The notes under the pieces: generated by a model
Seen by the model: only the letters and a program-made list of their open reading frames with translations
What the model was told of the DNA's origin: nothing
Databases searched by the model: none
Program-made: the position numbers and the translations under genes
Part shown: positions 2,510-31,030 of the stretch, one piece after another
Numbering within the stretch: the stretch's first letter is position 1
How the letters are laid out: the number at the start of each line of letters is the position of its first letter
Assembly (NCBI GenBank): GCA_037834085.1
Contig: JBBMKC010227212.1
Span: 1-33,392 of the forward strand
From: Bipalium vagum
Taxonomy: Eukaryota
DNA: 33,392 nucleotides
Reading direction: 5' to 3'

Positions 2510-2960
2510 GTAATTAAATTTGATTCAAGGAATATATCCCGTGATCGGGATAATAAATTAATTTTTTAACTAGTTTTACCTTGGCGTGAAGATAAAGTTA
2601 GGATTAATGGGCTATTTAAGGAAATAGCCGTTTCAAAGTGTAAGGATTGGACTAATTTCTACTACTATATAAAGAGACGGCTATTCCCTGAAAGCCACCC
2701 CTAATAAAATGAACCCAGAAAAGACAAAGGCGAAGACACTTTGAGGATTACTACCCTAGTAATTTCAATTTTTAGCTATGGTGATAATGCAAACGTGTTT
2801 AACAAAAGGGCTCAGAGAGTTTGGGAATCCCTAGGTGACATGAAAAGAACCTAGAGGACGACCCAGAGATCCCTTGTCACTCCTCGTGAGATTGTTATAG
2901 ATTTCCTTTTATTTTATTTTTGTGATTTTTAATAAATATTTGTTTTATATTATTGTGAAA
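2510..2960 (+). repeat. GC-richer interspersed repeat, LTR-like, rich in hairpins
   Basis: TATA-like tatataaa at ~2666 is flanked by an imperfect inverted repeat (ggaaatagccgtttc ~2620 / gagacggctattccc ~2674). Several small hairpins and an AATAAA at ~2931 are present. A 77-bp block (2817-2893) recurs inverted at 21779-21855. Ends not defined. Confidence 0.4.
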
Positions 2961-4739
2961 TTTATAATCATAAATTTTTTAGCATCATTATTATACTTTG
3001 TTTTTATTCATTTGTGATCATTTGTTATTAATGAATGTTGGCTTTTTGTTATATTTTTATTGACATTGGATCAATGGATTACGAAATGTAGGTTAGATAT
3101 ACATAAGTATTTACACGATAGTCATAACTCGTATATATGTTTAAGTATCTAAATGATTTTTCTATATAGTTACAAGGGGCTTATCGCAAGGCTCACCATC
3201 TGTCGAAGAAAGTGTAAATAGTAAAAGAATCACGAATAAATAAAGCGATTAACAAAAATAAGATATAATTGTTATCAAAACTGCAAGGTTAGCTCTATTA
3301 TACAAATTTATATTTCACAAACACAATCAATAATTATTCAATTAATAAAATAACTTCTTGACTTTCTTTTTCTTTTTTGCTTTTTCTTTGAGTGTTGCGG
3401 GGATTGAGTGTGGTTTGTTATCAATTTTACTGTAGAACTCAACATATGCATGTTTCATCCGCCTTATTCGCCACACACTGCCCCTTCCGACTATAATATC
3501 TTTTGATGGATGAGTGATGACCTGGATAATGTCCACTTCTAATCTTACGGAGAATGCAAAAAGTGGATGTAGTCTTGGATTTCCTCTAAAGATAAACAGT
3601 TCTTTCGTATCGGAATTTATATGGTACCCGAGAAATTGGAGAAAGTAATACTTAACGATGAACAATAATTTGAACAAAAATATATTGTTTCAACTTTTCA
3701 TATAAAGCTTCTTATTCACAAAGACCCTCAAAGTCTATTTGTATACTTAATAAATAAAGAGCTAAAAAGAAAATATATTTTATATTCAAACTTCACATAC
3801 AACAAATATTTCAACAACTTCTTAAGCTTGTGCATTTTAACATTCATTTGTTCTCTTACCAAGAAAGAGTCTTCCAAACCACCCTGAACTCTCGTAGTTA
3901 TAAGAATTATCTATAATATCATATGCTAAGAGGAAAAGATCTCGATTTAAATTCCCTTCTGATTTAATGAAGTTATGTTAAAATGTGATCTTGTCGGTCA
4001 ACCTTCCCATATCAAATTAAGATGGAAAGTAACAGTATTCCTTAGATGATGTCGAAGGAGGAAATTTAGAACTTACGTATCATAATACAAATCTGCTCTA
4101 TTATTATGGATGACATTTTCATTGTTGATATGATAATTAATATTTTAAAGTCTTATGAATTTTTTCTTGTTATTTTTTCATATTGAGTTTTAAAAAACTA
4201 AAAATTATTTAATGAAATTATTTTTTAATATATTATCTCATAATCCTATTTAAAAGAAAATTAAATATTATATTTATGTTTATTTAATTTGTTTAAACGT
4301 GTGTATTAATCTACTATTAATTTTCATTCTGAAATGGCCAATTTACATTTTAAGGAAATGAATTTAGTCTTCTTAATTATCTTGCTGCCATTTATAACTA
4401 ATGAAAAGGTAATTGAATATTATTTTTTTAATATGCTAGTAAATATCTAAAAAAATTCTATATATTAAAGTACATTTAACTAATTCCTATGTATTTACTT
4501 TATATGATCAGTATTTGAAATTAATTTTGGCTATGGTATAGTATCTACCCCGTTTTTTAATTATGAATGACATTTTTAATGTAAAATTTTATTATGAAAT
4601 ACGAAAATTTCAAAAAATAATAGTAAAAATAAAAAATTTTAATGAAATTAAATATTAATTATGTAAATTATACATCCTGTTTTGTTTTTATATACCTGTA
4701 ACGAAAATGAAGTCATTCTTAATTTAATGTAATTTTAAT

Positions 4740-5714
4740 TTACAACACAATTAATTCCACATTAATCTTAATCAATAAACATAAATCATTGTTGAGTAAA
4801 TCTATTATAGAATTTTTTTCATCAATTTTAAGTTTTACGTGGAGAAAATTTTTATCCAGCTCAACTGTGTTAAAATGGAAGTTGCATCTTAACACATTCT
4901 GTTCCTCTTTATTGGGATAACCAAGAATACTGAATATTTTGATTAATTGATCCATATTATCTATTCCTTGAAATAGTGGTTCAGCATTGATCATATGGAT
5001 AAGAACAATAGCAGATGACCAGATGTCAATAGTAAACTTGTAATCTGTATTTCTGCATAATATTTTTGGAGCTTTATAATATCTTGACCCAACGTTGATT
5101 TTCAATTTCTTCGAACAACCGAAATCAGCTATTTTAACATTATAATGTTCAATATCAAGAAGAATGTTTAAGCTTTTGATATCTCTGTGTGCAATTTGAT
5201 GGTCATGTAAAGACTGTAGGCCAAATAAAATTTGCTGCGTAAGCGATTTTCTAATATCCCCTGGGATCAATTTTCCTTCTTCGTTATATTTATGCATTAA
5301 GTTATGTAAATAATCCGGAAAACTTTCCATTAATAAATTTAATTTATTTTTACTGTAAAAGTAGTATTTTAAAGTAACTATGTTTCGGTGTAATCCACTG
5401 ATTTCTCTGTGAATGTCAAGTTCTCGTTTGTTTTTCCGTGACAAAATTTTAATTGCCAAATATTTCGAAACTGGTGGTCCATTGGAATATTTTGAGCACT
5501 CTGGCACAAAATCAACGAGAAAAACTTGACCAAATCCTTCTGAGCTCAAATTCCTAACGAATGAAATTTCGGCATTGATAAATTGCTTGCCTGACGCCAG
5601 ATGTGCTCTAACTTTATGATAGCGAACATTAACATTAGCTGAGTTAATGGTTAAATAGCTTAAATCGGATCTATAACTGAAAACACTCATAAAACACACG
5701 TCTTCAGTGTTCAA
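4740..5714 (-). CDS. GSK3: Divergent GSK3/shaggy-like CMGC Ser/Thr kinase, intronless; possible pseudokinase or young pseudogene
   Basis: 324-codon open frame with AIK, KRELDI (GSK3 NRELQI), HRNIVTLKYYFYS, HRDIKSLNILLD, DFG, SRYYKAPK (GSK3 SRYYRAPE), TDY..IDIWS, PLFQG..DQL.KI..ILGYP. The first ATG is at 5690; the ORF track start is TTG. The Gly loop is degenerate, the activation loop is short, and subdomain XI is not recognisable. Confidence 0.8.
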   Translation of the reverse strand: MNTEDVCFMSVFSYRSDLSYLTINSANVNVRYHKVRAHLASGKQFINAEISFVRNLSSEGFGQVFLVDFVPECSKYSNGPPVSKYLAIKILSRKNKRELDIHREISGLHRNIVTLKYYFYSKNKLNLLMESFPDYLHNLMHKYNEEGKLIPGDIRKSLTQQILFGLQSLHDHQIAHRDIKSLNILLDIEHYNVKIADFGCSKKLKINVGSRYYKAPKILCRNTDYKFTIDIWSSAIVLIHMINAEPLFQGIDNMDQLIKIFSILGYPNKEEQNVLRCNFHFNTVELDKNFLHVKLKIDEKNSIIDLLNNDLCLLIKINVELIVL

Positions 5715-7140
5715 TTAAAGAATTTCAATGGTGACAAAATAGCAATTTTTTTTGAAAATAAATTTAATTTCTGCTAATAAAATTCCTCGGAATACACGAT
5801 AATAATTATTAAAATCGAGAATAAATAATAATAATAATAATTTGGGAGATATTTCTTATCATTACGTGATCATCAATTATTTGTAATACAATATATAATG
5901 AGCGTGAAAGGAAATTCCAACATGTTTTTGAGAACGAGAACGGAAAAGATTAGGATGGTTTTCTTTCAACCTTGGCCTGTGACATCAAACAAACTTCCAT
6001 CATTACTCCGCATCTATTTTCGCCTTCAATGTGGATTGGTCAGCTAATCGGTTGCCAAAATCGACAATCACTGATGGACGTTTTCCTAAATTATATTGAA
6101 CCGTGATTTTTCGCGTCCTTGTTCTCGGCTGTCATTGAACTTAAACCATTATTTTATCGAACAAAGAATTCAAAAGCTCTTTAAATATTGATTAATTTAT
6201 TTTTTATTGAATTATTTTTATTCGTTTTAATTTCGATTAAAAACTATTTCAATCGAGTAATATTAATTTATTAACTAATAATAATATCAATTTTAATTTA
6301 AATCTGTTGAAAATTGATTTTATGTATTTGTAATTATTTATTATTTTGATACAATTATCCATTATTGATTTATTCTTTATTAAAATGAAAACAAATATTT
6401 GGACATGGGCGGCATTTCTGATTGCGTTTGAATTGAAAATAGGTCCCTTATTGGAGTTCATGTCATTTAATTTTAAAAATTTCTATCAACAGAATAAAAT
6501 TTCTAAAAAGAGATCAATCCTAAAATTCGCTTATAATTTAAATTTATGCTAATAAAAATGAGAAACAATTATTAAATATTACTATTAAAGTTTATGGCAA
6601 CATTTTTGTCTGATAGGTGGTATTTCACTTCTATTTTTATTTTTTCATTAATTTTGCATTTAGTGAAAATCAAAGTTTTCTATGTCGAAATATCAATTAT
6701 TTCAGTTTTCTGTTATTTTACAATAGTAATTGCAAAAAAAACTTTATATCATATAATAATTATTTTTCTGAAAAATAATAAATTTGGAACAAGATCATAA
6801 TTTGTGGAATTAACTTGAAACTCGGTTATGGTTCTTACTTGTACAATATTTATCTCAACTAGAGTCTTATTACAGAGTTTCCCAAATTCGCATCTTTCAT
6901 TTGAATTGCCGAAATTTTTAATGGGAACTTGAATGAATCATTTTACAGAAATTTTTATCTGAAAATAATTAATAAACGAAAAAAATTTTCATTTCAATAA
7001 GATTCTCAATTTTCTTTGTTTCTTTGTCGTTGCTATAATTGAAAATGTCATTGGTACTGTAAGGTTGTCAATCACTTCAAATAGTATAAATGGTAATTTG
7101 TCTTTTACACAAAATGCTTTAAGCCTATTTTCAACTCAAG

Positions 7141-7200
7141 TGTTAAGTTCCTAAAAGTGATTGATTTTAAGTTAAAAATATCGATAATGGGCTTTTAGGT
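7141..7200 (+). repeat. Dispersed repeat, 5' end of a putative LTR family (copy 1)
   Basis: tgttaagttcctaaaag...gggcttttaggt is shared with 32802-32856. It starts with TG, and cctaaaag/cttttagg form an inverted pair. Confidence 0.5.
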
Positions 7201-7589
7201 TAATCAGCAAAACATATATTACTATCAGAAGGATTTATGAAGTATAGTTCTGAATTGTAAATAAAATAGGAAAAAATGAAAACAAATCGATTAATACCAA
7301 TTGTTTTTATTTGTAAAAATGGAATTTTAAATGAGAATTCTTAAATCCTTTCAGTTATCCTGTAAACTGTGGAAAGGCCCTGAGGTAATTTCATGAGTGT
7401 GGCCCTAACTGCTGTGTAAATTACGAACAAAAAGAGAAATAGGGAGAATATAAAAATAAAAACAAAGGTAATGCTACTTAATAGTGATTGCCAGAAGATG
7501 CAAATTTAAATATAATTTTAGTGAATCTGTGCAAACTATAATAGTTTACCAGATTATATAGTAAATAACAATTTATAAAATAATAATAA

Positions 7590-7660
7590 TTAAAAGTAAT
7601 AATAATTAAAAATTAAAAGTAATAATAATTAAAAATTAAAAGTAATAATAATTAAAAATT
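7590..7660 (+). repeat. Tandem repeat, 23-bp unit x3 (taaaagtaataataattaaaaat)
   Basis: Directly visible; the single G recurs at 7596, 7619 and 7642. Confidence 0.9.
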
Positions 7661-7799
7661 TACTGCTTCAATAGCATGTACTGAATGTCGTCGAAGTTTT
7701 TAGTGTCCGCTTACGATTCTTAGGTCATTTATTATGTAAAAAGAAATTTTAATCATAAAATATGAATATAAAAATATTTGTATATGGAAAATTAAGTTT

Positions 7800-8160
7800 A
7801 CAATGACACAATTTTTACACATTTCATATTATAATTTTCTCCGAATGCTCATTGCAGACATATTTTCCACAAGTGTCACAAATTTGTTTAGAGGCTTTTT
7901 CTTTTGATAATAGACAGCAATGACATTTCCGTATTTTTCAACAACTTTGTTATCGAGATCAATTGTAGTAAAAGTATTGTAATAATCTGAATAATACGTA
8001 GTTATTGAAAAAATGTTTAACATTTTTCTGTTTGTTAAAAGGTGTAACCAAGTCTTGAAAGTTTTTTAAAAAATAATTTCCGATGTGAATTGCTTTTGGT
8101 TTTCTTCCAATCTGAAAAAAAATGTTTCCACGTGATTTCGACAGCTATACCACATTTTAA
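7800..8160 (-). mobile_element. piggyBac transposase C-terminal remnant including the cysteine-rich domain
   Basis: Minus strand: CGIAVEITWKHFFSDWKKTKSNSHRKLFLKNFQDLVTPF, resembling piggyBac W..K..RR.FL..L...LVTP. In a frame different from the listed ORF 7829-8023 it reads KIRKCHCCLLSKEKASKQICDTCGKYVCNEHSEKII..MCKNC (CxxC..CxxC.CxxH..CxxC). Confidence 0.8.
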
Positions 8161-8345
8161 TGCTGGTTAAAGAAAAGCAGTTTTAGAAAAAATAATCAAG
8201 TTGTTATAATCAATATAATCTTTTTTAATAACATATTATATAGTAAAATTGTTTTTCCTGAACCAGAAGGATCAATAATTAACATTCTAAAAATTTGTGT
8301 TAAATTTGAATGATGGTTAAATTTTACAGAATTAATCACAAATCA
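8161..8345 (-). pseudogene. Polinton-type (A32/FtsK-HerA-like) DNA packaging ATPase, N-terminal fragment
   Basis: KFNHHSNLTQIFRMLIIDPSGSGKTILLYNMLLKKDYIDYNNLIIFSKTAFL*P. The Walker A motif has its first Gly changed to Asp and is followed by the DY..L..F.K..QP segment typical of Polinton ATPases. Truncated at the piggyBac fragment. Confidence 0.8.
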
Positions 8346-8380
8346 AATTCGGTTTTTTAAAATATAATTTGACTTACTAT

Positions 8381-9179
8381 TTAAACTTGTTTGAGGTGAA
8401 TTTTAAAACTAATTTCTTCTCCATTAAAGTCTATTAATTCTCTGTTATCATCAATTATTCTAAAATTTATTACATGAATATTTTTTTTGTAATCACAGGA
8501 AAATATTAGGAAAAATTGGTTCTTTATTAATTTTATATCCTCTTTTTACAGTATTCTTAGGAAAATCATAAATAATAGTTGTTTTTTTATTATTAAAATG
8601 TAATCCACTTACAATATCACATTCAACCATAATTGTATTTATATCTGAAATATTAACTTTTTTAGAATAATGAACTCCTTGATAAGATTTATTAACTACA
8701 AATCCTAAGAAATGAATTTTGAACAGGAAAAAATATTTTACAACTTTTAGATATTTATATTATACAGTTTCCAGAAATTTGATGAGCAACAATCTTAAAA
8801 TAAAATTTATCTTTTTTTATACCAACTAACTCTGTCATATTTAAATTGGTACTCGATTTAATTAGATATTTCTGAAATTTCATATTCTCCAGGAGTTAGT
8901 TTGAAATTTAATTTTTTATTTTTACCTTTTGAATCTGTAATTTCTAAATTGATTCAAATTTTTTTTTCAGTAATATTACAAATTGAATTATAAGTTGAAA
9001 AATATACTAAACCTAATTCATAGTTTAAATCCTCTTTAAGTTTTAAAGGATAATCTAATCTTAATTTTATTTCTGAACTACTGCTTTTTATGAGAAATGA
9101 GAAAATTTTGAGATAAAAGGTTTGTTATTTTTTCTAAAGATTGGAAAGCTATGCTTCCAAGAGCTTCGCTTGGTTCCAT
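8381..9179 (-). pseudogene. Polinton/adintovirus minor capsid (penton-like) protein
   Basis: Across frameshifts: SSSEIKLRLDYPLKLKEDLNYELGLVYFSTYNSICNITEK; LTPGEYEISEI; FLGF..GVHYSKKVNISDINTIMVECDIVSGLHFNNKKTTIIYDFP..VKRGYKINKEP; YFPV; RIIDDNRELIDFNGEEISFKIHLKQV*. Stop codon at 8381-8383. Confidence 0.8.
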
Positions 9180-9236
9180 ATTTTTATTAAAAAAAATTTT
9201 TTTAAGTTATTAAAAATATTTTCGTAAACCTTTGGT

Positions 9237-9700
9237 TTAACTCTTTTTTGTTTTTTTTAATTTTTTTAAAATTAAATGATCAAGATTATCATGTACTGCT
9301 TTGTTAGCAGATAAATATTTTCTTAAAGTTACAAACTGATCAAGAGAATCTTTTGGTTTATAAATTTTATAACCTTCACTTTCTCTTTTTATATTTTCTA
9401 ATAAAAAATATTTATTTTGAATATTTTTTGTATAATTTGCTTTCATAGACTTTTGAACATATTTTATTAAATATATACATTAAATATAATACGTATAATA
9501 ATTCAAATCTTTTAAACTATAATCTCTTGCCCAGTTATTATAAAAAATATTACCATAATCTTCACCTTCAATTAATGATTTTAAATCTTCTGATAAGACT
9601 CCTGAATTTGCATCATTTTTTTTCTATAATTAATTTCATTACCAATTTTAAAAAACTCGAAAGAAATTTTATTTATTGTTAAAATATTTTTTTCCGATTT
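9237..9700 (-). pseudogene. Polinton-associated conserved protein remnant, upstream of the penton
   Basis: LSEDLKSLIEG...DYSLKDLNYY, then ORF 9237-9446 LRKYLSANKAVHDNL. These resemble the Y..DL..Y and LRLL.AS..AGN motifs I recall from Polinton ORFs next to the penton. Recognition from memory only. Confidence 0.4.
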
Positions 9701-10284
9701 ATTATAGTTAAGGGGCTTGAAAAAATTTGTTTAAGTTAACTATTTAAATCCATTAACTAACATTTTTTAAATTTAAAAATTTTAAATTTATTTTAAAAAT
9801 ACTTAAATAATATAGTAATTATGGTATTATTATATGAAAAAGAATGTTAAAGTAAGATAATTTATATATTTCCATCTATTTATGAATTGAAGATAATTTT
9901 TTTTCGATGAAAGCCTGCCAGTGTATCAATTTTTGGTTGGATCGAAATATTTTAAACAAAGTATCGGTTGTATTGATGCATGTTTCATATAAGGACAGTT
10001 TACATTTTTCAATGGGAAACTTGGAACTAAACGTCAAAAGTGACTAAATGTGACAACTTCATTGCTTACAAGATGAGATCGCTTCCTTTTTGTTCCTAAT
10101 TGTCAATTGATATATAGAGATTTACTGAGTTCTGCTTTTGAAGATATTTCATTTCGTAATTTAGTTGAGAAATAATTTATTTTTAAATAAATTTTTAATA
10201 AATAATTTTTATTATCAACAATCATAAAATGTGGCCGCCCTAAAGAAAACCGTATTTCGTTCTCTAAATCTAAAAATTTTTTTT

Positions 10285-10815
10285 GACTTGTTCAATTTTT
10301 TCATTAGTTAAAGTTTTATCACCTTAAGCTTTTATTTGAACAATATAAAGTGTTAATTGAATTTTCAATGATTTACAAATTTCTCTATAAAGTTTTTTTC
10401 TTTTGTAATATTTTTACTAATTGTTTTAGTAATAAATAAATTTAATCCAGTAAAAATTGAAATACCAATTGGAATATAAATAACTAACTCAATTCCTAAA
10501 GTAGAAACTCCTGTCATTTTTGCTGATCCAATTCCAATAATTCCTGTTACAACATTTGTTCCTAATTTTACATGAGAATCTTTTTTGTATATTTAAGTTT
10601 TAATTTTTTATAATGTGTTAATAAGTCTTCTAAAACTTTTTTCTCATTCATAAAATTTTTAATTTTTCTAATTGATAGATAAGTGAATTAGAAAATCTAT
10701 CATTTAAAAATCTATCTAGCACCAACGTTGCGCTTTGCAGTGCTCAATCATTATAATAAATATATTTATTTTCTAAATTTGGATATATTTTTTCAATAGG
10801 TGCACTTCCATTTTT
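10285..10815 (-). pseudogene. Polinton/adintovirus putative membrane-active protein (Gly-rich hydrophobic hairpin between basic helices)
   Basis: SAPIEKIYPNLE...KKVLEDLLTHYKKLKLKYTKKDSHVKLGTNVVTGIIGIGSAKMTGVSTLGIELVIYIPIGISIFTGL...KRKKLY..NSINTL..DKTLTNEK; frameshifted. Confidence 0.6.
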
Positions 10816-10834
10816 TTTAAATATTTTTAATATT

Positions 10835-12037
10835 TTACATTGCAGCGTAATTAGGATAAAATTGTTTCATAAAAATTTCAATTTCTTTTAATTCATTATT
10901 TTGTAAATATCTATGAGAAACCATAATTTCATAAATTTTTATATTTTCTGAATTAATTTTAAATGAAAAATTTTTTAATTACAAATGGATTCATATTTTT
11001 TTTCTGAAGTATAAAAAAATTTTATTTTATTAGACCAGACTAATGGAGTAAATCTTAAAAATATTAAATCAATTCCAAGAGCGAGAACTTTGTTCTCTAA
11101 GCCAAAGGCTGCTTTGCTTGCTTTAACTAACGTTTTTTTCTAAAGGTTTTCCATTTACCATAAAATAATTCCTATAAGTATTGTACCAACCAAAAACATG
11201 ATTATTTGTAGTTCCAAAATTTACAACATTATTGTTTGTGTATTCATTTTTACACTAATATTATTGTAAATTCGTCTTTTAAAGAGATATTCTTTCTCCA
11301 TAAAAATATCCAAAACTGGTTATATTGATTTTTAATTTTTCATTTGTTGCTAAAGCTTTCCAGTAAGAATGACAAATAAAAGGCGCACCTTCAGTGTTAG
11401 AGCCGACAGCTCGTTTATTTTTCATACATTTTTTTATAATCATCAACTGCTAAATATTTTTTTAATTTTAATTTAATATTAATAAAATATGAAAAATCTT
11501 TAAATTTGTTTAATTAATTTTTAATTTTTGTTATAAAATTTTAAATCTATTCGCTTTACACACATACCTTGCATTTCATTAACATCCTTTTCTATAGATT
11601 TATAATTTATTTCTATATCAGAATATTTTTTATTTATATTTTTTTCTATATCTTTATTAAAATTTTGATAGATTTTCTCAAAATATAATTTATTTTTATT
11701 TAATATATCTTCTAATTGTTTTTTATCATTATAAAAGTTTTGTTTAAACGAAATAAAATTAAAAACTGTTATACTTTTATTATTTATATAATCATTTTTT
11801 TATTTTCAAAAATTTGGTTTCATATTTTTTGTTCTATCTCTTAAACATTTTAAATTTACAACATCATTATCATTAATAGGATCATGAGTATCTATTATTA
11901 TTCATATTTAAAATTCCTTTCATAGAATCTCCTGTAACATTTAAAAATTTATTTTCACTTTCATCTCTAATAAAATCAATTTCTTCTTTAACCTCATTTT
12001 CATTTTTAGCAATATTAACAAGTACTTTATCGGACAT
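10835..12037 (-). pseudogene. Fibre/spike-like viral structural protein remnant
   Basis: N-terminal FLNVTGDSMK-GILNMNNNR..DPINDNDVVNLK is a GDxMxGxLxM / DP...D.VN fibre-type repeat. The middle is coiled-coil-like. The C-terminus IYEIMVSHRYLQNNELKEIEIFMKQFYPNYAAM* resembles the end of LamG/concanavalin-like head domains. Confidence 0.55.
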
Positions 12038-12149
12038 TTTTAAAAAATCTATATTTTTAATTCATGTGAGCACTCATGAGAATATGTTCGAATTTTTAAT
12101 TTTTCTAAATGAACGTATTTTAAATTTTCTAAAATTTCATCAAATTTTT

Positions 12150-12357
12150 TTCCATTATATATATATATATATATATTTGATATAATGGAAACCACCTCCG
12201 CGTAAACCACCTGGTTTTTGTTCTTCAGTTTGATTATTAACTTTTTCATTAATTATTTTTTTGGATAGATATTTCTTTTCTCCTTTAAAAGTAATTGTTT
12301 TTGATTTTCCTACCTCAATAATATTTTTAATTTATCCTCTGTGATTTCTGTAGTCAT
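12150..12357 (-). pseudogene. Small basic core-protein-like remnant with LRGG motif
   Basis: MTTEITEDKLK/IIEVGKSKTITFKGEKKYLSKKIINEKVNNQTEEQKPGGLRGGGFHYIK, in a different frame from listed ORF 12049-12249. (M/L/I)xGG is the adenain consensus cleavage site. Confidence 0.4.
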
Positions 12358-12639
12358 TTTTTGGAAATAAATTTGAAAAAAATTGTTATTTCTTTATAAA
12401 AATTGAAAAAAAATTTTTTTAATTTTTTAATAAAAGATTTATAAAATTTAAGAATTAATATTATTAATATTGTAATTATAATTATAGTATTAGTTAATAT
12501 TTTTTAGAATTTTATAATTATATTAACGATAAAAAATAGGCGATTAATATATAAAATCAAGAATTCACACTTTTAACCAATAAAAATACATAAAAATAGA
12601 AAATAAATATTGAGACAAATTTAAACAATTAAAGCTATA

Positions 12640-13250
12640 GTATTTTTTATCACATAAAATTTCAATTGTTTTGAAATGTTTTTTTACAAAATAAATAGAT
12701 TAACCATATTTGAAAATATTTGTTTTCTTTTCTAAAAGAAAAGATCTACATAAAAAATTAATATATTTTCTAGAATATTTAATTCCATTAGTCTTAAGGA
12801 TATTTATATAATTTCTTTTGGATAAAATCCTTATTTTTTCAAAGGCTTCACCTTGAATAGCATAAATTAATAATTGATCCTTTAATTTATATTTTAATTT
12901 GAGGTCGCATTTTTTAATTGTTGCTAAACAATTTTTTACATCTAACAAATTGAAGTAATCTATGAAAAATATTTCCTTATCAATTTTTGAGTTCAATATT
13001 TTCCTCAATAATTTTAGATTTTTTGTTCTTTTGGAAATTCCACGATAATTTCTTCAATAACTCCATCTTTTTCTGTCACTGGAATATCTACATATTATGT
13101 TTCGTTTGATATTGACATTTCTTGATCTTCTGTAATTTTCATATATTTATTTTGAAAACTGGAACATAGAGTTATTAATTCATCATCATGAATATTTAAA
13201 TAAATGCAATCGAAAATCATATTTAATTGAGTTTTCATTTCTATTCCATT
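12640..13250 (-). pseudogene. Polinton-associated hypothetical protein remnant (includes ORF 12700-13008)
   Basis: LLIYAIQGEAFEKIR...IKYSRKYINFL...SIYFVKKHFKTIEILC resembles an uncharacterised ORF I recall from animal Polintons. It is co-oriented with the module. Confidence 0.4.
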
Positions 13251-13654: not shown

Positions 13655-14880
13655 TTAATTTAATACGTAATTCAATCCTCGCATGATTAATTTGTCAAAA
13701 CCTGACATCAGATCATACTCCAACTGCAGCACTCGGCTCTCCATATGGGGGTAGCCTCGCTCATACTGGACTATATAAATGAACCCTTCCGTGCATAAAG
13801 GGTTAAAGCAAATGCGGAATTTTCGAGAAGGCGACAACCAATGAATATTATATACTATCAAAGGGATTCGTTCAAGAAATATATCAAGAGCGTATCTCAA
13901 TCCTGCCCGTTGAGTTAGCAATGTCTCCACAAGAGTTTTCCTTATTTTCATTCTTGTATAATTATACAAGGCAGTTGTGTTTAGATCTAGTGTCTCCCAT
14001 GATAAAGATTTTATTGTCTTTCAAATTGTAATAGAGTTTTAGTTTCGTAGGCTGATATATGACCATCTTCAGTCACTTTAAAACCTACCTTATGTAAGAA
14101 TTCGACTGAGAATTTCGAGTATCACACTGGAAACGACTGACTAGGCACTTTAGTGATAGCTACTCGTCCTGTCGAATGACTGGTGTCCATTGCAAAGACT
14201 GCTGATCGTCTCCACGTGATTGAAAGTTGCTGATCAATTCCTAAGTATACCCAATATGCCGAAGATCCTAATACTGGAATTGCTGTATGATATACTACAG
14301 GGAGATCATGAGTCAAGTAAACTCCATTAGGTAGAATATCATTCAATCCGCAATTAGGATGATATACAGGGATGAAGTATGCTTGTAACAATTCATTCAA
14401 AAGTGTTGTGCTCCCATGCTTGATTCTTATTGAGGTGTCTAAGTCTATCGTCAAGAAACATGAATCAGCACAAAAGGCAGACATATAGGACACATACACG
14501 GCCAGGTTTAAACGCTTTAAATGTGTGTAATGCCACAATCCTTCTTTACAACGTAAGTTAATTATTATAAAAAAAATAAGTTAATCAACAGAATATAATC
14601 GGTTTCACCAAAACGAATTCTTTTCAGATCCGCTGACTATTAGCTGAGCTCTTTCGGTTCGCTTAGAAATAGTCCTCTGGTGGGGAACCTAGACATAATC
14701 CTGTAATACTGAAATGAATCAACATTCTTGGTATTGTGGGTAACGTCAATACGTCTTTCAACAATATCAATTATATGCATCTTTTCAATATTCAATATCT
14801 TTGCTACAGTTTCATTTTTTTTTCTTTATTTTCGTCTCTATTCCTGGGCGAAAAGATGGAGAACCGCATCTTTTTTTAAA
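13655..14880 (-). pseudogene. Disrupted ~400-codon orphan gene (joins ORFs 14122-14538 and 13655-13969)
   Basis: GC-richer than the flanks. The frame continues past the TGA at 14122 (PV*YSKFSVEFLHKVGFKVTEDGHISAYETKTLLQFERQ), and one frameshift leads into the 13969 ORF. Removing a 23-bp insertion at 14563-14585 restores the frame upstream (RRIDVTHNTKNVDSFQYYRIMSRFPTRGLFLSEPKE..RIRFGETDYILLINLRCKEGLWHY). Family not recognised. Confidence 0.6.
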
Positions 14881-18652: not shown

Positions 18653-20829
18653 TAAGCTACATTTTAAATTTTGAAAATGTAGTTTTTTATAATTTAAAGT
18701 AAATTTTTTATGATTAATTATTTTACTTATTTGTGAACTTTTTAATTGATTATTAATATAGAATTATTACTTTTGTGGATATTTCAATGGGGTTTTTTTA
18801 TTAGTGATTATTATTATTACATTTTACAAGTTTGAAGCTCACAACATTACAACATAAAAGATAAATTCAAACTTTTCAGACAATCAATTAAAATTTATTC
18901 TTACTATACCAAGCTTCATGCACTAAAATGAAAGATGGTTTATGCAATGGTCCCTTGATAGATCCACAATTTGGCTTGATTGCGTCATTTTTTCATTTTG
19001 GCTTTTTATTTTACTGGATTTGGCTGCTGGTTTGGCATTCTCCATACCTCTTCCTTCTTCATAGGTCTTATATTTAATTTTTCTCATAAAGAATAATTAC
19101 AGCTCAAATAATTGAGTTAAATTCTTTATTATATATAAACAGTTTTTGGATATTGATTTACAATTTTTGTTTCTTTCTAAACTAAATTAAAACTAAATAT
19201 TGAATATAAATTTTGCCAATCGATAATATTTAGCACATTTATATTAGGTCTTTACTTTTTGTAATATCAAATTCCATTGAATTCATCCTATTCTTGAATG
19301 TTTAATATCCTGTGAAAATTTTAGTTTTACTTTATGAATCTTCAATTTCAATTGATTGAATTAATAAAAAATTAGTTCCACTATATTTACTTTCATCTTT
19401 TTAAAAACATACATAAATATCTTATTTAATTTGTACTTTTAATCTGGAAATAAAGCTCGGTCAGAGTATGTTTCTAATAATTTTTAATATTATAATCTAA
19501 CTGAGAATTTGTTCTTTAAAATGTTTTATTATCATAATTGATATTTATTTTCAAGTTTTAGAAAATACTAATGAACTGTTTCTTCAAATTGAATGTCCGA
19601 ACATTTTCAGAAAATAATACTCAAATTCATTATTATTCGTCATCTTTTGTTTAAGAACACCAATTTATAATTGATATAATTTAAACTTGAATGACAAATA
19701 ATTTTAAATTATTAGTCTTTATAATGTTTTGTTCAAAAATATTTCAGTCTTATTCAAATTAAAGTACCAACATCAAGTCTTACTAATATTGTAAGCAGAC
19801 AAATATTTTATATTTCTATTTTCTTATAAATCGTTAGATCCATTTTAATCGGAAGTATTTTTAACATCGTTCAAATATAGTTTAAAATTACTGCACGTTC
19901 CCAGGGACATTTAATTTCAATTTCTGTATCTTCTTATTTTAAAGTCATTTCTTCAAATAATCTTGGATAAAGGTGTTTTCTAATGTTATTTTAATATTTA
20001 AATACAATTGGTTAAATTTTAATTAATTTATAACAATGTACAGAAAAAAGTCTGAAATCTGATTAAAAATACAGTTTTTCTGAAATTTTTGTTCATTGGT
20101 TAGCTAATATGACATGTTCTAAATTTGGTATTATATCTTAATCCACCAACATTTAAAATAAAGTGCGTAGATATAAAAGTTTATTAATCGTACTACACTT
20201 TATCACAAAGGAAAATGTAAATAGTGTAGGGCCACGACTTCGATGATCCCACCAATATATATTATCAGTAAATCCAGCGACTCTTAAACTGGTTACTAGA
20301 TTCGGAACTCACCTTCAAAGCTTATGGTCGCTTTGGAACTGAATGTTCAAGGTCAAGCTCTTTTTACCCAATACTTCGCCATACTAATTATCATCATCAG
20401 AAGGTTATTTTGATACGGAGTTGGTTTGAGAAATAATTGGTATCCTGTATATTCTTCGTTGGTTTATACCCTTCCACCATGGTTTAAGACTGTACTTTGC
20501 ATCACTTTTTAGGGAAGATAATTCTAATCAATGCAAATATAAGCATCAAAGTAAACGAAGTTCTAAATGTATAAATTTAATATCTTAATATACTTTCAAA
20601 CAAATATATAAGGAACTCCATGTACCTATTGTAAAGAAATAAAACAATTTAGTTTTAATTTTAATTTCAATTCAGTTATTTAAATATATTATTTTCTTAA
20701 AAAATATATATTTGGTATATTAACAGTCGTATTATGAAAATATTTCTAAGTTTATTATTATTAGATTTTTATTTTTCATAAAATCCCCTTCTGTTCTTTG
20801 ATTATTTCTAAATATTTATATATTTATGT

Positions 20830-22600: not shown

Positions 22601-24856
22601 CAGTTACAAATTAAATATTCTCATTTTTATGACTATATGCTATCTTATTTTTAATAAGTTAATCACGTATCAAATGAATTATTTATTAAAGTAATGTAAT
22701 TTTTCACATTTGTTAATTAATTGTAAAGTAAAAGAAATGAAAAAGCAATATATCAAACTCTTATATAGACCCTTTGGTCCTAGGGTCATTAGATAACCCA
22801 TAACCGGTACGCTCATAAACGCCCTAACAGCACAGGACTCATCGTTAGCTCTTGTCGCATAACAATAGGTACAAAATGAATAAATAAATATTCATCAATG
22901 TTTTCTTCGAATACGATTACAGGGTTCCTCCAACATACGATGGTTTTTTCGACGTACTATAAATGGCTTCAAAAAAATGATGCTGGTGGCAGTCCATTGA
23001 GGACTCCAATCTCTTTTATACTGATCAGACGACTACTCAGTCGTACACCAGTATTCTTAATCGCCGACTCTAATCTAATCTTGGAATTTCGAATATTGTC
23101 AAGATTCGAACATCAAAAAATTTTTTAAATAGTATTATTATATTATTCCAGATCCTTTAGCGGTCTTTATAATTTGAAAGATGTGTATTTTGTTAACCAA
23201 AGATTTACAATAAAAGTAAGAATTTCGAGTAATCATAAATTTTATATAAATATTAATATTATTGTCTGAATGATTTTAATATATATATATGGTTGCGGAC
23301 TGGTTTTTGTGCAACTCCAACAGTGATGAACACGTTGCAAAATGAGTTTTAAGTCACCCCGTGAGATATGTTTTAGGAATTCTGAAGATGACTTTGCCCT
23401 GAACAGGTTTTTCAAAAGTGGCCATTAGATTTAAAAAGAAGTTCACAATCATGATTTCTATCGACTTCGATCATGGGTGGGTTATCTTTTTCGTGGATCT
23501 ACAAAGATCTGCTCCCATTCCGTTGGACCCTAGGCTCTCAAATTATTTGACTTCCACTATTATAATATTCAAGTTCCCTTGATAGAAGCTTCTTAAGGCC
23601 ATTCATATCATCTTATTGTGTATAAACTTTGTGCAAGTGAAATAAATTAAATTGTATCATAAAGGAAAAGTGATGAGATTTCGTTTTGCAACTCATTAAG
23701 CTTTGACTCCACTGCGGCTTAGTATAAGAAAACGTGCATTTACTTAAAACGTAAACCATTATATATTAGTAATTTATCCCAATAAATATTTTTTATTTTG
23801 TTGCTTTTCATATCCAGGAATTACTATATTCTTTGTAAGTTAAATTTGAAGCTCTTCCTAACGTTTTGTGCTCTAATTGTTTCTTTCCTTCTTTATTAAA
23901 TTATGAACTTTCATCTGATCTTAGCTATATTTTTTAAAGGCCGTCTCAATCATGCAGATGTTCTTTTCCTGTGTCCACTTTTTAATACATGGCTCAGCTC
24001 GAACCATTTGATTACTAATTAGAGTGAGTCAAAATAATTTATGTTTTATAAGACTTTAAAATGAAAGACCAAAAATAAAAGTTTTGTATCATTTATTCAT
24101 CAAAAAATAAATCACCACATATGTGAACAAGTTCTTAGTATCAATCAACTCAACCCAACCTAAGTCCAAAATCAAATACCTTATCAATTTCAAAACTATA
24201 TTAAAAAATCGTGATTTTATTCATTTTGTGATAATTATTAATTCTTTTTAATAATAAATAACAAAAATAACTTACGCTGTTTTATTTGAAACGGGGGTGT
24301 CGGTGGAGAATCTGTGGTTCTGAAAAGGAGATAATAGTAATAATAAGATCTTACCGATGGTGATTAACTGTTTTAGATAATCTGAAAATAAAGTAAGTTA
24401 AACAAAGAATAAATTTTATTGATATCTTGATTGATATTGAAAGAAGTAAATGGAGGTCTTATGACCTTTTAAAATTTAATAATAGAAAATAAAATAGGAA
24501 TTATGTATATATAAAAACTAACAATAATAATAAAATCACCACAGGATAAGAAAATAAAATTAAAAATATTAAAAACAGCATTATAAGAATGAAATAGTAA
24601 TAATAAATAAGAGAAAAGTTGAGAAGACGCTAGTTAACAGGAATAACTTGAATTTAAAATAATATAATGAAGTCAATAAAAAAGCAAATACAGAAAATTT
24701 TCACAAATTTCAATTCGGCGTTTTTGTGTATTCAGATTATGCAGTAAATTATGGCAGCAACTACTGATCCTTCAAAGTTCATGTAAATGTATGAAAGGCA
24801 GTTAGTTGTCCTTTGTGGGGTATCACTGTTCTTTTGTAGTCTGAATTGATATATTG

Positions 24857-24964
24857 ATCTTTCCCCCTCACTTCACATATATTTCTTGCTGCATCTATTG
24901 CTTTCCTGTTTTTTTTCAAGTAATGTCTCAGAATGACTCTGATTTCGATTGGTAAGTAGCTCAT
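24857..24964 (-). mobile_element. Mariner transposase N-terminal (HTH) fragment
   Basis: MSYLPIEIRVILRHYLKKNRKAIDAARNICEVRGKD matches the mariner N-terminal IR..L.....G..A.EAAR.IC.V.G.D pattern; similarity ends after ~36 codons. Confidence 0.8.
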
Positions 24965-25476
24965 TTTGAAAGTAAATATCTAAATAAAATTTCAAAATAA
25001 ACACACATTTTTTAATATTTAAAAATTAGAATAATATATAATATCAATTAATGATTATTTCGATATTTGAAAGTTAATATACTTTAAATATTTCATAGAT
25101 AAAATTTTTTTGAAAAGTTATTTTTTCATCTGCTTTTATATCTTGTATTTCTCTTTCAAAAATTAATAATGTTTTTGATAATTCTAAGGTATTTACTGTT
25201 ATTAATGAAGAAAAAAAAATTATTTACATATTTTGCAATTTTTGGGCTTAATGAAATTACTCTTTAGTTTTATAATGCAATCCCAATAATTAATTGTTTA
25301 ATTGTTATTTTGATATATTTATAACTTTATTTTTATTTTCAATTTATATTTTTATTTAATTTTTCAATTATTTCTTGTTTTTTAATTCTTAAATTTGATT
25401 TTTAGAAATATTTTGTTTGGAATGATTATGGTAGTAAATATGAGAATAATTATTTTATATTTCATTTTAACAAGTA

Positions 25477-26764
25477 CGGGTTACATGAAAAGTTATGAAA
25501 GCAATACCTATAAACTAGTAAAAGAAAAAAGAAAAAATTTCTGTGGTATTTTAATACGAAGGTGTTGCTTGGTATCATTCTTTTTAAAGATAAGTAGAGC
25601 ATTAACGCAGAACTTAACGAAACAATGTTTCAACATTACACATGAAAATTTTGTTTAAATCAATTACCATTATTGTTTGCACATGTTTGAATTTGATTTG
25701 TCATGTATTATTTTTAGTATGGAAAAAATATATCGCAAAGTCATCAAAAATTTTGTTTCTAGATGTATAAAACATATCAGAAATTCACAGTGAATTGGTA
25801 AAAGTATCAGAACAGTTTGCTAATTTAATTTTTTATTGTCTATCGATGAATTTTGAAATTCAAAAGAATCGAACTGACATCGAAGATAATGCACACAGTT
25901 AACGTCCTAAAAGTTCCTCAGCACCGGAAATTATTGGATAAATTCATGAAATGATACATAAAGATCCAGGTGTGACTTTACGTGGAATTATTGAAAACTT
26001 TTTATCTGAGACGGATAAGTTTGTCATATAATAAAAGATGTCGTAATCAAAGTTTCTATAAAGTGATGCACATACTTAAACGTTTCAGTAAAAGTTCTTT
26101 ATAAAGAAAATTTGTCAATACCATTAAGATTTTTTATTTTAAAAATGTACTTTATTCTTCGTTTCATAACAATGTACGAGATTTGGATTAATCACCAATA
26201 TCCTAATTTGAGTCGAGAACGTTTGTGAAACTGAATTTTTATTTTCAAAGAGAATAAACGGTTTTAAAAGATTTCAAAGGTATTCTGGTAACAAATAATG
26301 TTGAAAAAGACAAAATTAGTACCTCTGAAAACTATACAAGGCTATTAGATATAAGTTAATTTGCCTTTTGTAAACCAGGTCTTTTTTCGCAAATCATTGC
26401 ATCTAACTATCAAGATAATGTATTTACCCACACAAGTAAAGGCAAAAATCAAATAATTAAATTATTATTTGCTTGAACAATCATCTTATTCACCAGATTT
26501 GGCTCCAAGCGACATTTACCTTTTTAGAAATCTAAAACATTGTTTATGGAGAAACTTTTATCATCAAATGAAGAAGTTATGGCAGTCGAAGACCAGAATT
26601 TTACAGATCTTTTGGAATTTCACTTCAAACATAGTGTAGAATTATTGAAAAAGAACTTAATTAAGTTTGTTGAATTGTTTGGAGACTATGTTCAATAATA
26701 AAAACAATTTCAATAAAATAGATTACGTTTCATTTTTCGCTTTCATATCTTTTCATGCAACCTA
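25477..26764 (+). mobile_element. Full-length defective mariner element (1288 bp) with 26-bp TIRs and TA TSD
   Basis: Left TIR cgggttacatgaaaagttatgaaagc (25477-25502) and the reverse complement of the right TIR, taggttgcatgaaaagatatgaaagc (26739-26764), are 22/26 identical, and both are flanked by TA. Decayed transposase from ~25719: MEKIYRKVIK, IEDNAHS*RPK, RFITMYEIWI (ITxDETW), YSPDLAPSDIYLFRNLK, GDYVQ*. Confidence 0.95.
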
Positions 26765-26989: not shown

Positions 26990-27812
26990 CTTTCCAGTTT
27001 CTTTTGATTCATTTTACCTTCAAAATAACGAAAATAATTGGATTCTATCTGTTTTTCTTTGAGCAAAGTGAACATAACGAGCTTTCCCATCGACGATTTT
27101 CCAGTTCATTTCAAACAAAGCTCTCAAGGTTTCTCATTGTTGACGAACGATATAAATCTGATTTTTTAAAGTCCTCTTTTTTATCACATCAGCTGTCACT
27201 GACAATTTCACCAAATAGTTCAAAAACTCTTTCAAGCTCTTTCAGTTAGGTCAGTAAAATAGTTGTTGATGAAACTATTTTTAAATTCGTCGCTGTTTTT
27301 ATTTATATCAATTCAAGGAATGAACTTTGGCCCTTTATAATGTTTTCACTGTCCACCTCAATTGCTTTCTATGTATTCTCTTCGCACTTGTATTGTACGA
27401 AAATAGAGCCTCTGGACTTTTGATTATTATCCGTACACGAAATAATTTCACCAAAATGAGCGAAAGTATGATATATCTGAATATCCGTAATTGATGGCTA
27501 AAGATTAATGATGAATGTGATAGCATCACTTGATATGGAAGCACAGAAACTATTCTCCGATCCCATAATTCTCCAGTTTACATCAAGTATCTTGTGTAGA
27601 TTAAGTTCTTCAATGGCATGCGTTGCATCTTTCTCATTTCTAAAGTTCACAAAACCATATTTGAGAAATTTACCACTGCTGACGTCGCGACAGACTCGGA
27701 TAGATATTATTTTTTCAAATTGTCGGAAAAGATCATGGAGAAAAGTTACATCTACACTCGGATGAGGATTTCCAACATATAGACTTGCATAATATGAGTT
27801 TTTATTTGTCAT
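26990..27812 (-). pseudogene. PABPC: Cytoplasmic poly(A)-binding protein pseudogene (RRM1-RRM3), intronless
   Basis: RRM1: ASLYVGN..SIRVCRD..LKYGFVNF..DATHAIEELN..RIM. RRM2 after a TAG: FIINL*PSITDIQIYHTFAHFGEIISC-DNNQKSRGSIFVQY..*KAIE..KFIP. RRM3: FKNSFINNY..VFELFGEIVS..EMNWKIVDGKARYVHFAQRKTDR. Multiple stops and frameshifts. Confidence 0.85.
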
Positions 27813-27979
27813 TTCTTAACTTTTATTTTTTCTAGAATTTTTAAAGCTCTATTTAAACAACCAATTCGAATTTTTCCTCAAAAAAAGTTTATTTTATTAA
27901 TTTGGATATGAAATTAATTTCTTTTAAAATTTAAAATTGCTTGTTTTAATTGTAAACTATTATAATCTTACAGGCTTGT

Positions 27980-28150: not shown

Positions 28151-29547
28151 TTCACTTAAGGCAGTTTTTCCTCTTTGGATATTTTGGCTTCTACGGAGTA
28201 CTGCTCCTAGGTTTCTGCAATTAAATTAATTTACTACATCTCTGCAATTTCGTACTATGTTCAAGTTATCTTTCAGTTCATCCTTTACTTTTGTTACTCT
28301 TAAAAATATATTGTTTAACTTTAAACTCAAGATTTCACTGACTCCTCACCCGGATTTATCAGTGTGCTTTTTTAACTTTTAATCGGATTAAGTACAATAA
28401 TCTTTACAAATCAAAATAATCCCAATTCTCTTTACTCAAAGTAAATGAAAATAATCACAGAAAACTTTAGTTACAACACACTGGCAATTTAACCGTCAAA
28501 CTAAATCATTATATCAAACACTCAGCACAGGCTATTAAGAATAAAAGGATCAAGATAATAATGATAGTGACAAAAACACACCATTATATCATTATTTCGA
28601 AATAAAACGATCACTTAAATTCTCAATATAATGTTCAAAAACACCAATCAATAGAATAATCTATAAATTTTTCAAAATCACAAATTGATAATTTATTAGT
28701 AATTATTTAATTATAAAAAAATATTAATTCAGGCAAAAAGAAGATTGAACACAAAAAAATGGTCATCTATACATAAAAGACACTCAACGTCTGCTCAAAA
28801 CTTGAAAATCAAAAAAATTAGAACAAGTGTTGTATCAAAGATATATACATTTTTAGTCTATTAAAAAATAACTTTATTTTTCGAATACACACTTTTCAAT
28901 AAACATTCTGAACAAAGAAATTTAATTATAATACTATTTCAATATAAGTTTCGATCTTTTCATTCAGATCTTATTCAGTCAATTTTTATATTCTTTTCAA
29001 TTACCTTCAAATGACATCAAATTTATGATTTTTTCATAAATTCTCTTTATAATTAAAAGATAAAAGTAAAAAGAAATTATAAATATTTTAAATTCAAAAA
29101 TTATTTTTAAAAATCTCCAGAAATATTAATTAAGGAAAACATTAATCATCTATTGATTTCTGTTCTCTTCATTTTTCGAATTAGTTTCTGATTTTAATCT
29201 TTTTGATTAGGAATGATTCACTGATTTTTCTTTCCTCGTTATTAGCAAATTACTAAACAAAATTTATGTTTATTCGCATATTTCCGTCTTTTTTGCAACT
29301 TCAATGATCCAACATTTTATTTGTCCTACTAATTTGAAATGGTCAATAATACTGGTCTACAGCTTTTTGTATCTGAGATACATCTATATTTTTCTGAAAC
29401 TACTCTTAAAATCATGAATTTTGGTATATAAATTATAATCATGACACATCTAGATCTTGAAAAAAATTAAAATATATAAAATAAAAAATTACCATAAAAC
29501 TTAATAAATTGGCTTAAATATTCTCTATTAATGAGTACTTATTGAAA

Positions 29548-29870
29548 ATGCTAAGAAACTGCAAGAATAAACCTAGCAATTTCTGTTACGTTTGTGGTTC
29601 TTTCACAACATTAGATCAGAAAAAAGCTGACGTGTGAAATTAGGCATAACGTTAATTTTGGATGTGAAGTGGGAGAGCAGGATAAGAACTGGGTGCCTCA
29701 CATAATTTGCTTATCGTGTTCTACCTCGTTGACAGGGTGGTTTCCTGGGAAAAGAAAATGTGTGCCGTTTACATTAAAGATGATCTGGACAATTCCTTTT
29801 GATCATTCAACAGACTTCTACTTTGCATGACTAAAGTGACTGGTATAAACAATTATAATTCAAATTTTCA
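29548..29870 (+). mobile_element. DNA transposase N-terminal zinc-finger fragment, CMC/Chapaev3-like
   Basis: MLRNCKNKPSNFCYVCGSFT..FGCEVGEQDKNWVPHIICLSCSTSLTGWFPGKRKCVPF..MIW..P.DHSTD.Y.CMTKVTGIN is a strongly conserved invertebrate transposase N-terminus. The superfamily name is from memory. Confidence 0.75.
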
Positions 29871-29962
29871 GGTGACGTTGCGTCTCCTTTATGTATAGAT
29901 GACAACACTAATGACATTGAAATGTATATATAAATATATATCTTAAATAATTTTTTCTTCCT

Positions 29963-31030
29963 TCAGAGTGGACTATAAATTATTTTCCTATTTAGAAATT
30001 GAATAATAAAGTTTTATTGAAAATTTGAATTTTCTAGAGATTAATAAATTTTAAATTCTTGGAAATTTAATATGGAAAAATATACGATAGAGCAATGAAT
30101 AAAAATTATCGAATTCTAATAATCAAAACATCATTTTAACAAAAAATAATATATTTCAAAATCAGAAAATTATCAACAATATCAGCAATACCTAACCTGG
30201 TCAAGTATTTCCAACAACAAGATTCTGTTACGACCCGGTAGACCAATTTCAGTACATTCTCAGAAAATTGTTGTTTGGGTACAGAAGAATGTCCTAGAAG
30301 ACTCGATTATCTACTAAAAGAATTGTCGATAATTTGAAGTTTCAAGAACTTCTTTGCAGCGCATACTTAAAGATTTAAAATTGCACTCGTACAAAATCAA
30401 AATAGTTCAAAGGTAACTCAATAAATTATAAGCAGTGAATAAACTATGCGATTTTAATTCAAGATATGGGTAGAAAAAACAGCAGCGTTATTGAAAATTT
30501 AATTATGCGAGCTTAATCGCATTTTCACATGAATGGCTATTTTCAATAAGTATCGAGAATCTGAAGAGTATTCATTTACATAAATTGTATCTTCTTAAGA
30601 TATCAATTTGGTGTGACCTAACATCTGGGAAGATAATCAGCCTTCCATTTTTAGGACGAAAAAGGAAATGCACTAACAGTCAGAGTCAATCAATATCGAA
30701 AAATATTGTAAATTTTTTGGTATTCAGAAATAGAGGAATTATCAGAAACATTAGGGAAATAAGATGGCGATACTGCTCACACTAGCAGAATTCTGAAGCA
30801 GTTTTTGTAAAGCTAATAATTTCGTGAGATTCAGATTTTCAATAGCCTGCACGTTTACCTGACCTAAATGCACGTAACTTTCTTTCTAAGCTACCTGAAA
30901 AATTAGATGCAATCTAATAAACCCAGAACTATCCAGAAGCTTAACTTCAGGAACTCCACAAATTTTAAATGACATAAGAGATCAGTTGGTATTTGTTACA
31001 CAAACAAATATATTTTAATCGGAATAAAAC
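29963..31030 (+). mobile_element. Decayed Tc1/mariner element, rosa/DD41D-like
   Basis: From ATG 30072: MEKYTIEQ*IKIIEF; SRTSLQRILKDLKLHSYKIKIVQ; HFHMNGY; KISIWCDLTSGKII; *DGDTAHTS; DFQ*PARLPDLNARNF (WPARSPDL..DFF). The D-D spacing cannot be counted because of indels. Ends approximate. Confidence 0.85.

Follow-up and report, generated by a model that had tools for sequence, protein, structure and literature searches.

The 33,392-nucleotide stretch of Bipalium vagum DNA analyzed in this study (contig JBBMKC010227212.1, hereafter the window) contains, between positions 8154 and 13250 on the minus strand, a row of broken genes that is very probably what mutation has left of the virion genes of a Polinton/Maverick (adintovirus-type) element, and one among many diverged copies in this animal's sequence data. 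The preliminary description of this DNA had read the block as the structural module of such an element. This reading was borne out by the fold of a penton homolog, an A32-type packaging ATPase and a pX-like core protein. It also agrees with one metagenomic locus, L004, where homologs of the core, ATPase, conserved open reading frame (ORF), and penton genes occur together with genes for an rve integrase and for a major capsid protein of the PF21738 family (double jelly-roll). The block is best understood as a Polinton fossil. The element belongs to an already known kind, as Polintons are described in planarians (PMC4028283, PMC8532177); the analysis adds two capsid remnants and evidence that the family is repeated in the genome.

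Five of the seven genes have intact homologs

The window has a GC content of 25%, is rich in low-complexity sequence, and carries broken mobile and host gene pieces throughout. A single natural frame running from 10640 to 8160, with stops written as X, was searched against 1.84 billion proteins (the full-library search), and 24 matches were obtained at an E-value of 0.001 or better. Eighteen of them fell on the penton gene, two on the conserved ORF, two on the membrane-hairpin gene, and one on the ATPase gene; the last, P0005, combined an ORF-like start with a penton piece. The lowest E-values were approximately 1e-13, and none of the ten homolog clusters that were looked up among the matches carried a name. 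Profiles of intact natural homologs were then scored on the six-frame translated window (stops as X), and the highest score among 10 locally shuffled versions of it served as the control. Five remnants scored 22-78 bits, compared to shuffle maxima of 8.6-14.3 bits, a 2.6- to 8-fold difference: 77.6 versus 9.7 bits for the penton, 69.0 versus 9.4 for the hairpin, 60.3 versus 12.7 for the conserved ORF, 46.4 versus 14.3 for the ATPase, and 22.1 versus 8.6 for the core protein.

From 13250 to 8154 on the minus strand, protein-like stretches were interleaved over three frames. The preliminary description had claimed seven co-oriented and abutting genes, readable only across frameshifts. For these five genes the order and the strand were as claimed, and each of them was indeed broken across two or three frames, all on the minus strand; however, the fibre-like and the hypothetical genes had no significant homologs. 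The term "abutting" was too strong, in view of a 264-bp gap at 12357-12620 (11% GC) and about 490 bp without homology at 9731-10224. Since scattered stops and frame changes were present in every gene and the homologs were intact under the standard code, neither programmed frameshifting nor another genetic code is necessary to explain this pattern. Every reading frame and the ends of the element have been lost, and subsequent deletions and insertions have interrupted what remains. The present copy likely encodes nothing today.

The penton remnant

The penton (single jelly-roll minor capsid protein, PX) was recovered as a full-length remnant at 8381-9179 on the minus strand, comprising 266 codons with several frame changes and one internal stop. 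Among 15 aligned homologs, 14 were 227-280 aa long and the remaining one was a 204-aa partial sequence. In addition to the full-library matches, tblastn pieces were collinear along the gene across several frames. The closest full-length homolog, P0004, was intact, and its model, made from 15 sequences, reached a pLDDT of 80. With this model, Foldseek found 38 PDB matches at an E-value of 0.001 or better, including the mavirus penton 6g42 (E 1.4e-11), Sputnik 3j26_N, and adenovirus pentons. In an independent structure aligner, chains from mavirus, Sputnik, PBCV-1, and aviadenovirus ranked first, with Z values of 12.4 to 8.4. The alignment to the mavirus penton (Z 12.4, 232 residues aligned) had a root-mean-square deviation (rmsd) of 14.4, because the domains hinge; that to Sputnik (Z 11.2) had an rmsd of 2.9 over 138 residues. 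On this intact homolog, the penton label and the single jelly-roll expected for it were supported. The single jelly-roll with an inserted domain, common to mavirus (PDB 6G41/6G42), Sputnik (3J26), and the adenovirus penton base, was seen on P0004; with approximately 10-15% identity, these pentons have the fold alone in common with it.

The ATPase, conserved ORF, membrane-hairpin, and core genes

The ATPase remnant at 8154-8345 (minus strand) holds the first 60 codons or so of an A32/FtsK-like packaging ATPase, including the Walker A region, in two frames. It matched Pfam Pox_A32 with an E-value of 1.6e-5, better than the curated cut-off, which agrees with the A32/FtsK relationship expected in the preliminary description, and it was 57-59% identical to P0024 and the L004 ATPase. 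Only the 5' part is present; the remnant ends at about 8154-8179, with its 3' side cut off.

The conserved Polinton ORF occupies 9183-9730 (minus strand), of which 9620-9730 was assigned by eye only. The part seen is the C-terminal half with its helical C-terminal domain, which matched P0001 (E 1.1e-13) and P0002 (E 1.4e-10) in the full-library search; its 60 bits were scored over 9183-9620 and covered profile positions 146-274. The N-terminal coiled-coil half present in the homologs was not seen in the window. The model of P0001 was poor (pLDDT 58), its best viral match had an E-value of 0.033, and its matches among solved structures were generic coiled coils, from which no function follows. 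That best viral match was a DUF8207 protein of Cotesia bracovirus, a lead that DUF8207 may be this Polinton family.

The membrane-hairpin protein, consisting of a coiled coil, a hydrophobic glycine-rich hairpin, and a helical tail, extends over 10225-10990 (minus strand), its start near 10990 being placed by eye. It matched P0003 (E 7.8e-10) and P0014 (E 1.9e-5) in the full-library search and scored its 69 bits over 10225-10678 across three frames. The look-alikes of P0014 in the ESM Atlas were unnamed viral and mollusc clusters. P0014 gave no Pfam or PDB match, and its identity as a gasdermin or GasderminX was not supported. The gene is likely one of the adintovirus membrane-active accessory proteins, which it fits in kind.

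At 12171-12356 (minus strand) lie the N-terminal 60 codons or so of a pX (mu)-like core protein precursor, ending in LRGG. LRGG fits the adenain cleavage consensus. This piece, earlier named an LRGG basic protein, was 46% identical over 39 aa to the beginning of the L004 core protein, which is itself weakly Adeno_PX-like (Pfam E 9e-4, below the cut-off); we therefore regard it as a pX-like core precursor. The hydrophobic tail of the core homolog was not recognizable in the window: the LRGG piece gives way to a TA run and then to the next gene.

Related loci

A metagenome scan with the conserved-ORF family gave seven loci (L001 to L007). The ORF stood directly upstream of the penton gene in three of them (L002, L003, and L004); L001 ended about 50 bases past the ORF, and there was no penton at that place in L005 to L007. 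pPolB was not seen in any of the seven, each shorter than 7 kb. L004, a JGI contig of 6.7 kb, was intact and carried genes for a PLA2-rve integrase, an HNH-like protein, a major capsid protein (PF21738), the core protein, the ATPase, the ORF, and the penton. Its core and ATPase were 46% and 59% identical to those of the window, and its ORF and penton 40-49% identical in local alignments; in both, the ORF comes directly before the penton. However, L004 has neither a hairpin nor a fibre-like gene, whereas the decayed window has the hairpin gene and the fibre-like region. The rve integrase (PF00665), at 61-1473 of L004, carries a zinc finger at its N-terminus as well as a PLA2 domain of the parvovirus type (PF08398), and adjoins the HNH-like gene; the latter, without a Pfam match, is presumed to be HNH-like from its motif. 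Scans of viral contigs found no relative, and in a word-index search with the conserved-ORF piece none of 31 candidates held up.

Diverged copies and the junction at 8154

Run X1 was the one public sequencing run found to contain this DNA, no RNA data set being listed among its carriers, and its contigs were mapped on window positions 7000-10100. A total of 3,131 contigs were placed there, 146 at 99% identity or more, 474 at 95-99%, 1,219 at 90-95%, and 1,292 below 90%; most were 80-95% identical to the window. The summed contig depth, which is no count of copies, was 481-30,676 over 8144-10100, compared to 39-41 in the flank at 7832-8039, and stayed high over 9704-10100. The genes in this interval thus belong to a repeated, diverged family in that genome. 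The expectation of copies elsewhere held, with many diverged related contigs, although intact copies were not shown by the listed pieces, all under 600 bases. Another repeat of the same genome lies at 7104-7727 (summed depth 482-6,392) and includes a 23-bp tandem array at 7579-7660.

At 8154, 31 run X1 contigs continued leftward into other sequence, and the window instead enters low-depth DNA. The junction is crossed by a contig of 553 bases that is identical to the window; it reaches 30 letters into the right-hand side, one letter below the bridging threshold. The sequence joined to the cut ATPase, at 7760-8153 (minus strand), is unrelated and low-copy (summed depth about 40 at 7832-8039) and ends in a Cys-rich motif. 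A deletion has probably brought the beginning of the ATPase gene up against this unrelated element at about 8154. The motif resembles a piggyBac C-terminal domain; 7760-8153 gave no Pfam or PDB match, and the piggyBac reading was not confirmed.

Major capsid remnants

A profile of 27 homologs of the major capsid protein (double jelly-roll, PF21738 family, PY) found three pieces in the window, at 25247-25074, 20023-19868, and 19248-19156. All three were on the minus strand and scored above all 20 shuffles in one scan and all 10 in another. The two pieces within 19156-20023 were collinear, covering profile positions 68-119 (15.0 bits) and 344-373 (17.7 bits) against a shuffle maximum of 8.5 bits, and they span 868 bases end to end for 307 profile positions, a spacing as in one gene. 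Judging from its strand and distance, this remnant may share a single insertion with the genes at 8-13 kb. The piece at 25074-25247, an N-terminal one covering profile positions 36-93, scored 24.7 bits (independent E-value 1.3e-6). It is likely a separate second copy, since the profile positions it covers overlap those of the 20-kb piece and a mariner helix-turn-helix fragment comes next to it. A single capsid gene split across 19-25 kb was considered and rejected, because its two parts would overlap in profile position. With two capsid remnants lying beyond the region first described, two or more Polinton insertions may be present in the window.

The fibre-like and first regions

The remaining two regions, both on the minus strand, look like decayed coding DNA. 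In 10991-12170 and 12621-13250, stop-free runs of 35 codons or more covered 0.84 and 0.80 of the minus strand, respectively, which none of 200 shuffles reached. The former, a possibly fibre-like region with a coiled coil and a beta-rich end, was equally open on the plus strand (0.86), and its purine skew was coding-like and the same as that of the flanking Polinton genes. No significant homolog was found for either region. The fibre label, suggested by a motif, was not supported by the tools: the PHROG matches were weak, the best (E 0.004) being to a family of unknown function and that to a long tail fibre having an E-value of 0.058. The first region, a decayed hypothetical gene, resembled Ank families weakly in the ESM Atlas (0.94, with a recognition of 1606) and had no Pfam, PHROG, or PDB match, and its assignment to the element was likewise unsupported.

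Replication genes, element ends, and alternative readings

The Pfam family DNA_pol_B_2 was absent from a scan of all 115 stop-free pieces of 42 aa or more beyond 13250 and of at least 33 of the 85 before it, which a heavily broken gene could escape. The L004 integrase gave one marginal piece of 10.0 bits at 2894-3031, compared to 6.1 bits in shuffles, and Pfam found no rve domain in the stop-free window pieces scanned. A partial ORF after the L002 penton, presumably protease-like from its motif and without a Pfam match, retrieved nothing above shuffles when used as a query on the window; neither did the HNH piece. No long inverted pair bracketing the block was seen among the 25 longest of 132 pairs. 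The Polinton end motifs (AG)3/(AGT)2 were scattered in the window without forming a pair, and one end of the element has been deleted.

Several points weigh against the Polinton reading. pPolB, integrase, protease, terminal inverted repeats, and a 6-bp target-site duplication were not found in the window; of the replication genes that define a Polinton, the integrase was seen only in a relative and pPolB nowhere. For two of the seven genes there was no homolog. The gene order of L004 is core-ATPase-ORF-penton with a divergent capsid gene, whereas that of the window is core, fibre-like, hairpin, ORF, penton, ATPase. Finally, the window itself may derive from run X1, whose contig depth gives no copy number. 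The absence of pPolB and integrase would suit the remnant of a Polinton-like virus or another midsize DNA virus that has the virion module in common and uses another replicase or recombinase. So would the fold matches of P0004, the best of which include Tetraselmis virus, virophages, and minor capsid proteins of giant viruses, and virion modules paired with other replicases are among the cases published in PMC8502044 and PMC11071296. However, L004, the closest locus with context, has the PLA2-rve integrase, an Adeno_PX-like gene, and the PF21738 capsid, and the high repetition in the animal run is expected of an integrating element; this origin is therefore very unlikely.

The 8-13 kb block could also be a patchwork of several insertions and host pseudogenes, with the first gene and the fibre-like region unrelated to the Polinton. 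The gaps at 12357-12620 and 9731-10224, the missing half of the ORF, the presence of two distinct capsid remnants, the mariner, RRM, and kinase pieces elsewhere in the window, and the weakly ankyrin-like first gene are consistent with such an origin. Nevertheless, the genes on either side of the fibre-like region both have Polinton homologs and agree with it in strand and purine skew, and the depth stays high over 9704-10100. A patchwork thus appears possible but unlikely, and it would change the boundaries of the Polinton block, not its identity. AT-rich DNA of low complexity, with a fibre-like region open equally on both strands, might be thought to yield such genes by chance, or decayed cellular genes might be mistaken for them; scores above shuffles, E-values down to 1e-13, the penton fold, and homologs in virus-like loci refute this for five genes and leave it a negligible probability.

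Animal Polintons as characterized in PMC4028283 carry genes for the major capsid protein (PY), the penton (PX), and the packaging ATPase that lack introns, share one orientation, and are repeated in the genome, as here. In Table S1 of that paper, Polinton1_SM, -1_SM, 2_SM, and -2_SM of Schmidtea mediterranea carry a penton and an ATPase; these were compared by gene content, and the replication genes and ends listed above were not found in the window. According to the data summarized in PMC8097293, animal Polintons are mostly frameshifted fossils like the present one, with 96% of 3,511 vertebrate Maverick loci degraded. Insertions of Orthopolintovirales in a rhabditophoran flatworm are among those reported in bioRxiv 10.1101/2025.04.19.649669. 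Adintoviruses, as presented in Starrett et al. 2021 (PMC8502044) and PMC11071296, have in common with the block a penton, an FtsK ATPase, and pX-like and membrane-active accessory genes, as well as a hexon-type capsid protein; however, their PolB with an OTU domain was not seen in the window. Assignment to the Alpha or Beta class depends on that PolB, on a class-specific hexon, and on the accessory genes (PLA2X versus GasderminX/Cupiennin). Accessory gene classes of adintoviruses are described in the same two papers and in bioRxiv 341131.

Proposed roles and significance

By analogy with known Polintons and adenoviruses, as treated in PMC4028283 and PMC8502044, roles can be suggested for the proteins of an intact element. 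The double-jelly-roll major capsid protein would form the facets of the particle and the penton would cap its vertices, while the A32 ATPase would pump the genome into it. An adenain-type protease would likely cleave the pX-like core precursor behind its xGG motif, and the hairpin protein probably acts on membranes in entry. Insertion of the element would fall to an integrase and its copying to a protein-primed polymerase.

Taken alone, the block is an ordinary genomic fossil that is useful for repeat annotation. It points to a large Polinton family in this genome that ORF-based searches miss. Intact copies, if present, would raise its importance, since planarian Polintons are piRNA targets that are de-silenced in normal differentiation, as PMC8532177 relates. 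We consider it rather unlikely that the block stems from a recently expanded, still virion-competent and undescribed Polinton lineage that has a distinctive gene order and a distinctive set of accessory genes (fibre-like, hairpin, and ankyrin-like cargo) and is most closely related to unnamed sequences from metagenomes. If that were so and the host were a planarian, this would be a place to seek Polinton particles in an animal; such particles were unobserved as of PMC8097293, according to its own statement.

Other features of the window

A 37%-GC island at 13655-14600 (minus strand) held stop-free frames of 121 and 152 aa, with no convincing match in Pfam, PHROG, PDB, or viral contigs. At 4740-5714 (minus strand), an intronless, stop-free Ser/Thr kinase frame of 324 aa was found (Pkinase E 4.5e-38), highly diverged with a best match of 37%; it may be a retrocopy or a pseudogene, and we take it to be GSK3-like from its motifs. 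A broken multi-RRM gene with RRM_1 matches lay at 27100-27815 (minus strand), presumably a poly(A)-binding protein (PABP) gene. Tc1/mariner-type fragments were present at 24782-24979 (minus strand), where HTH_48 was confirmed, and, as judged by eye, at 25800-26700 and 30495-30900 (both plus strand). Moreover, a 45-bp inverted pair at 28762-28806 and 29859-29903, 84% complementary and 1052 bp apart, may represent the ends of a small DNA transposon.

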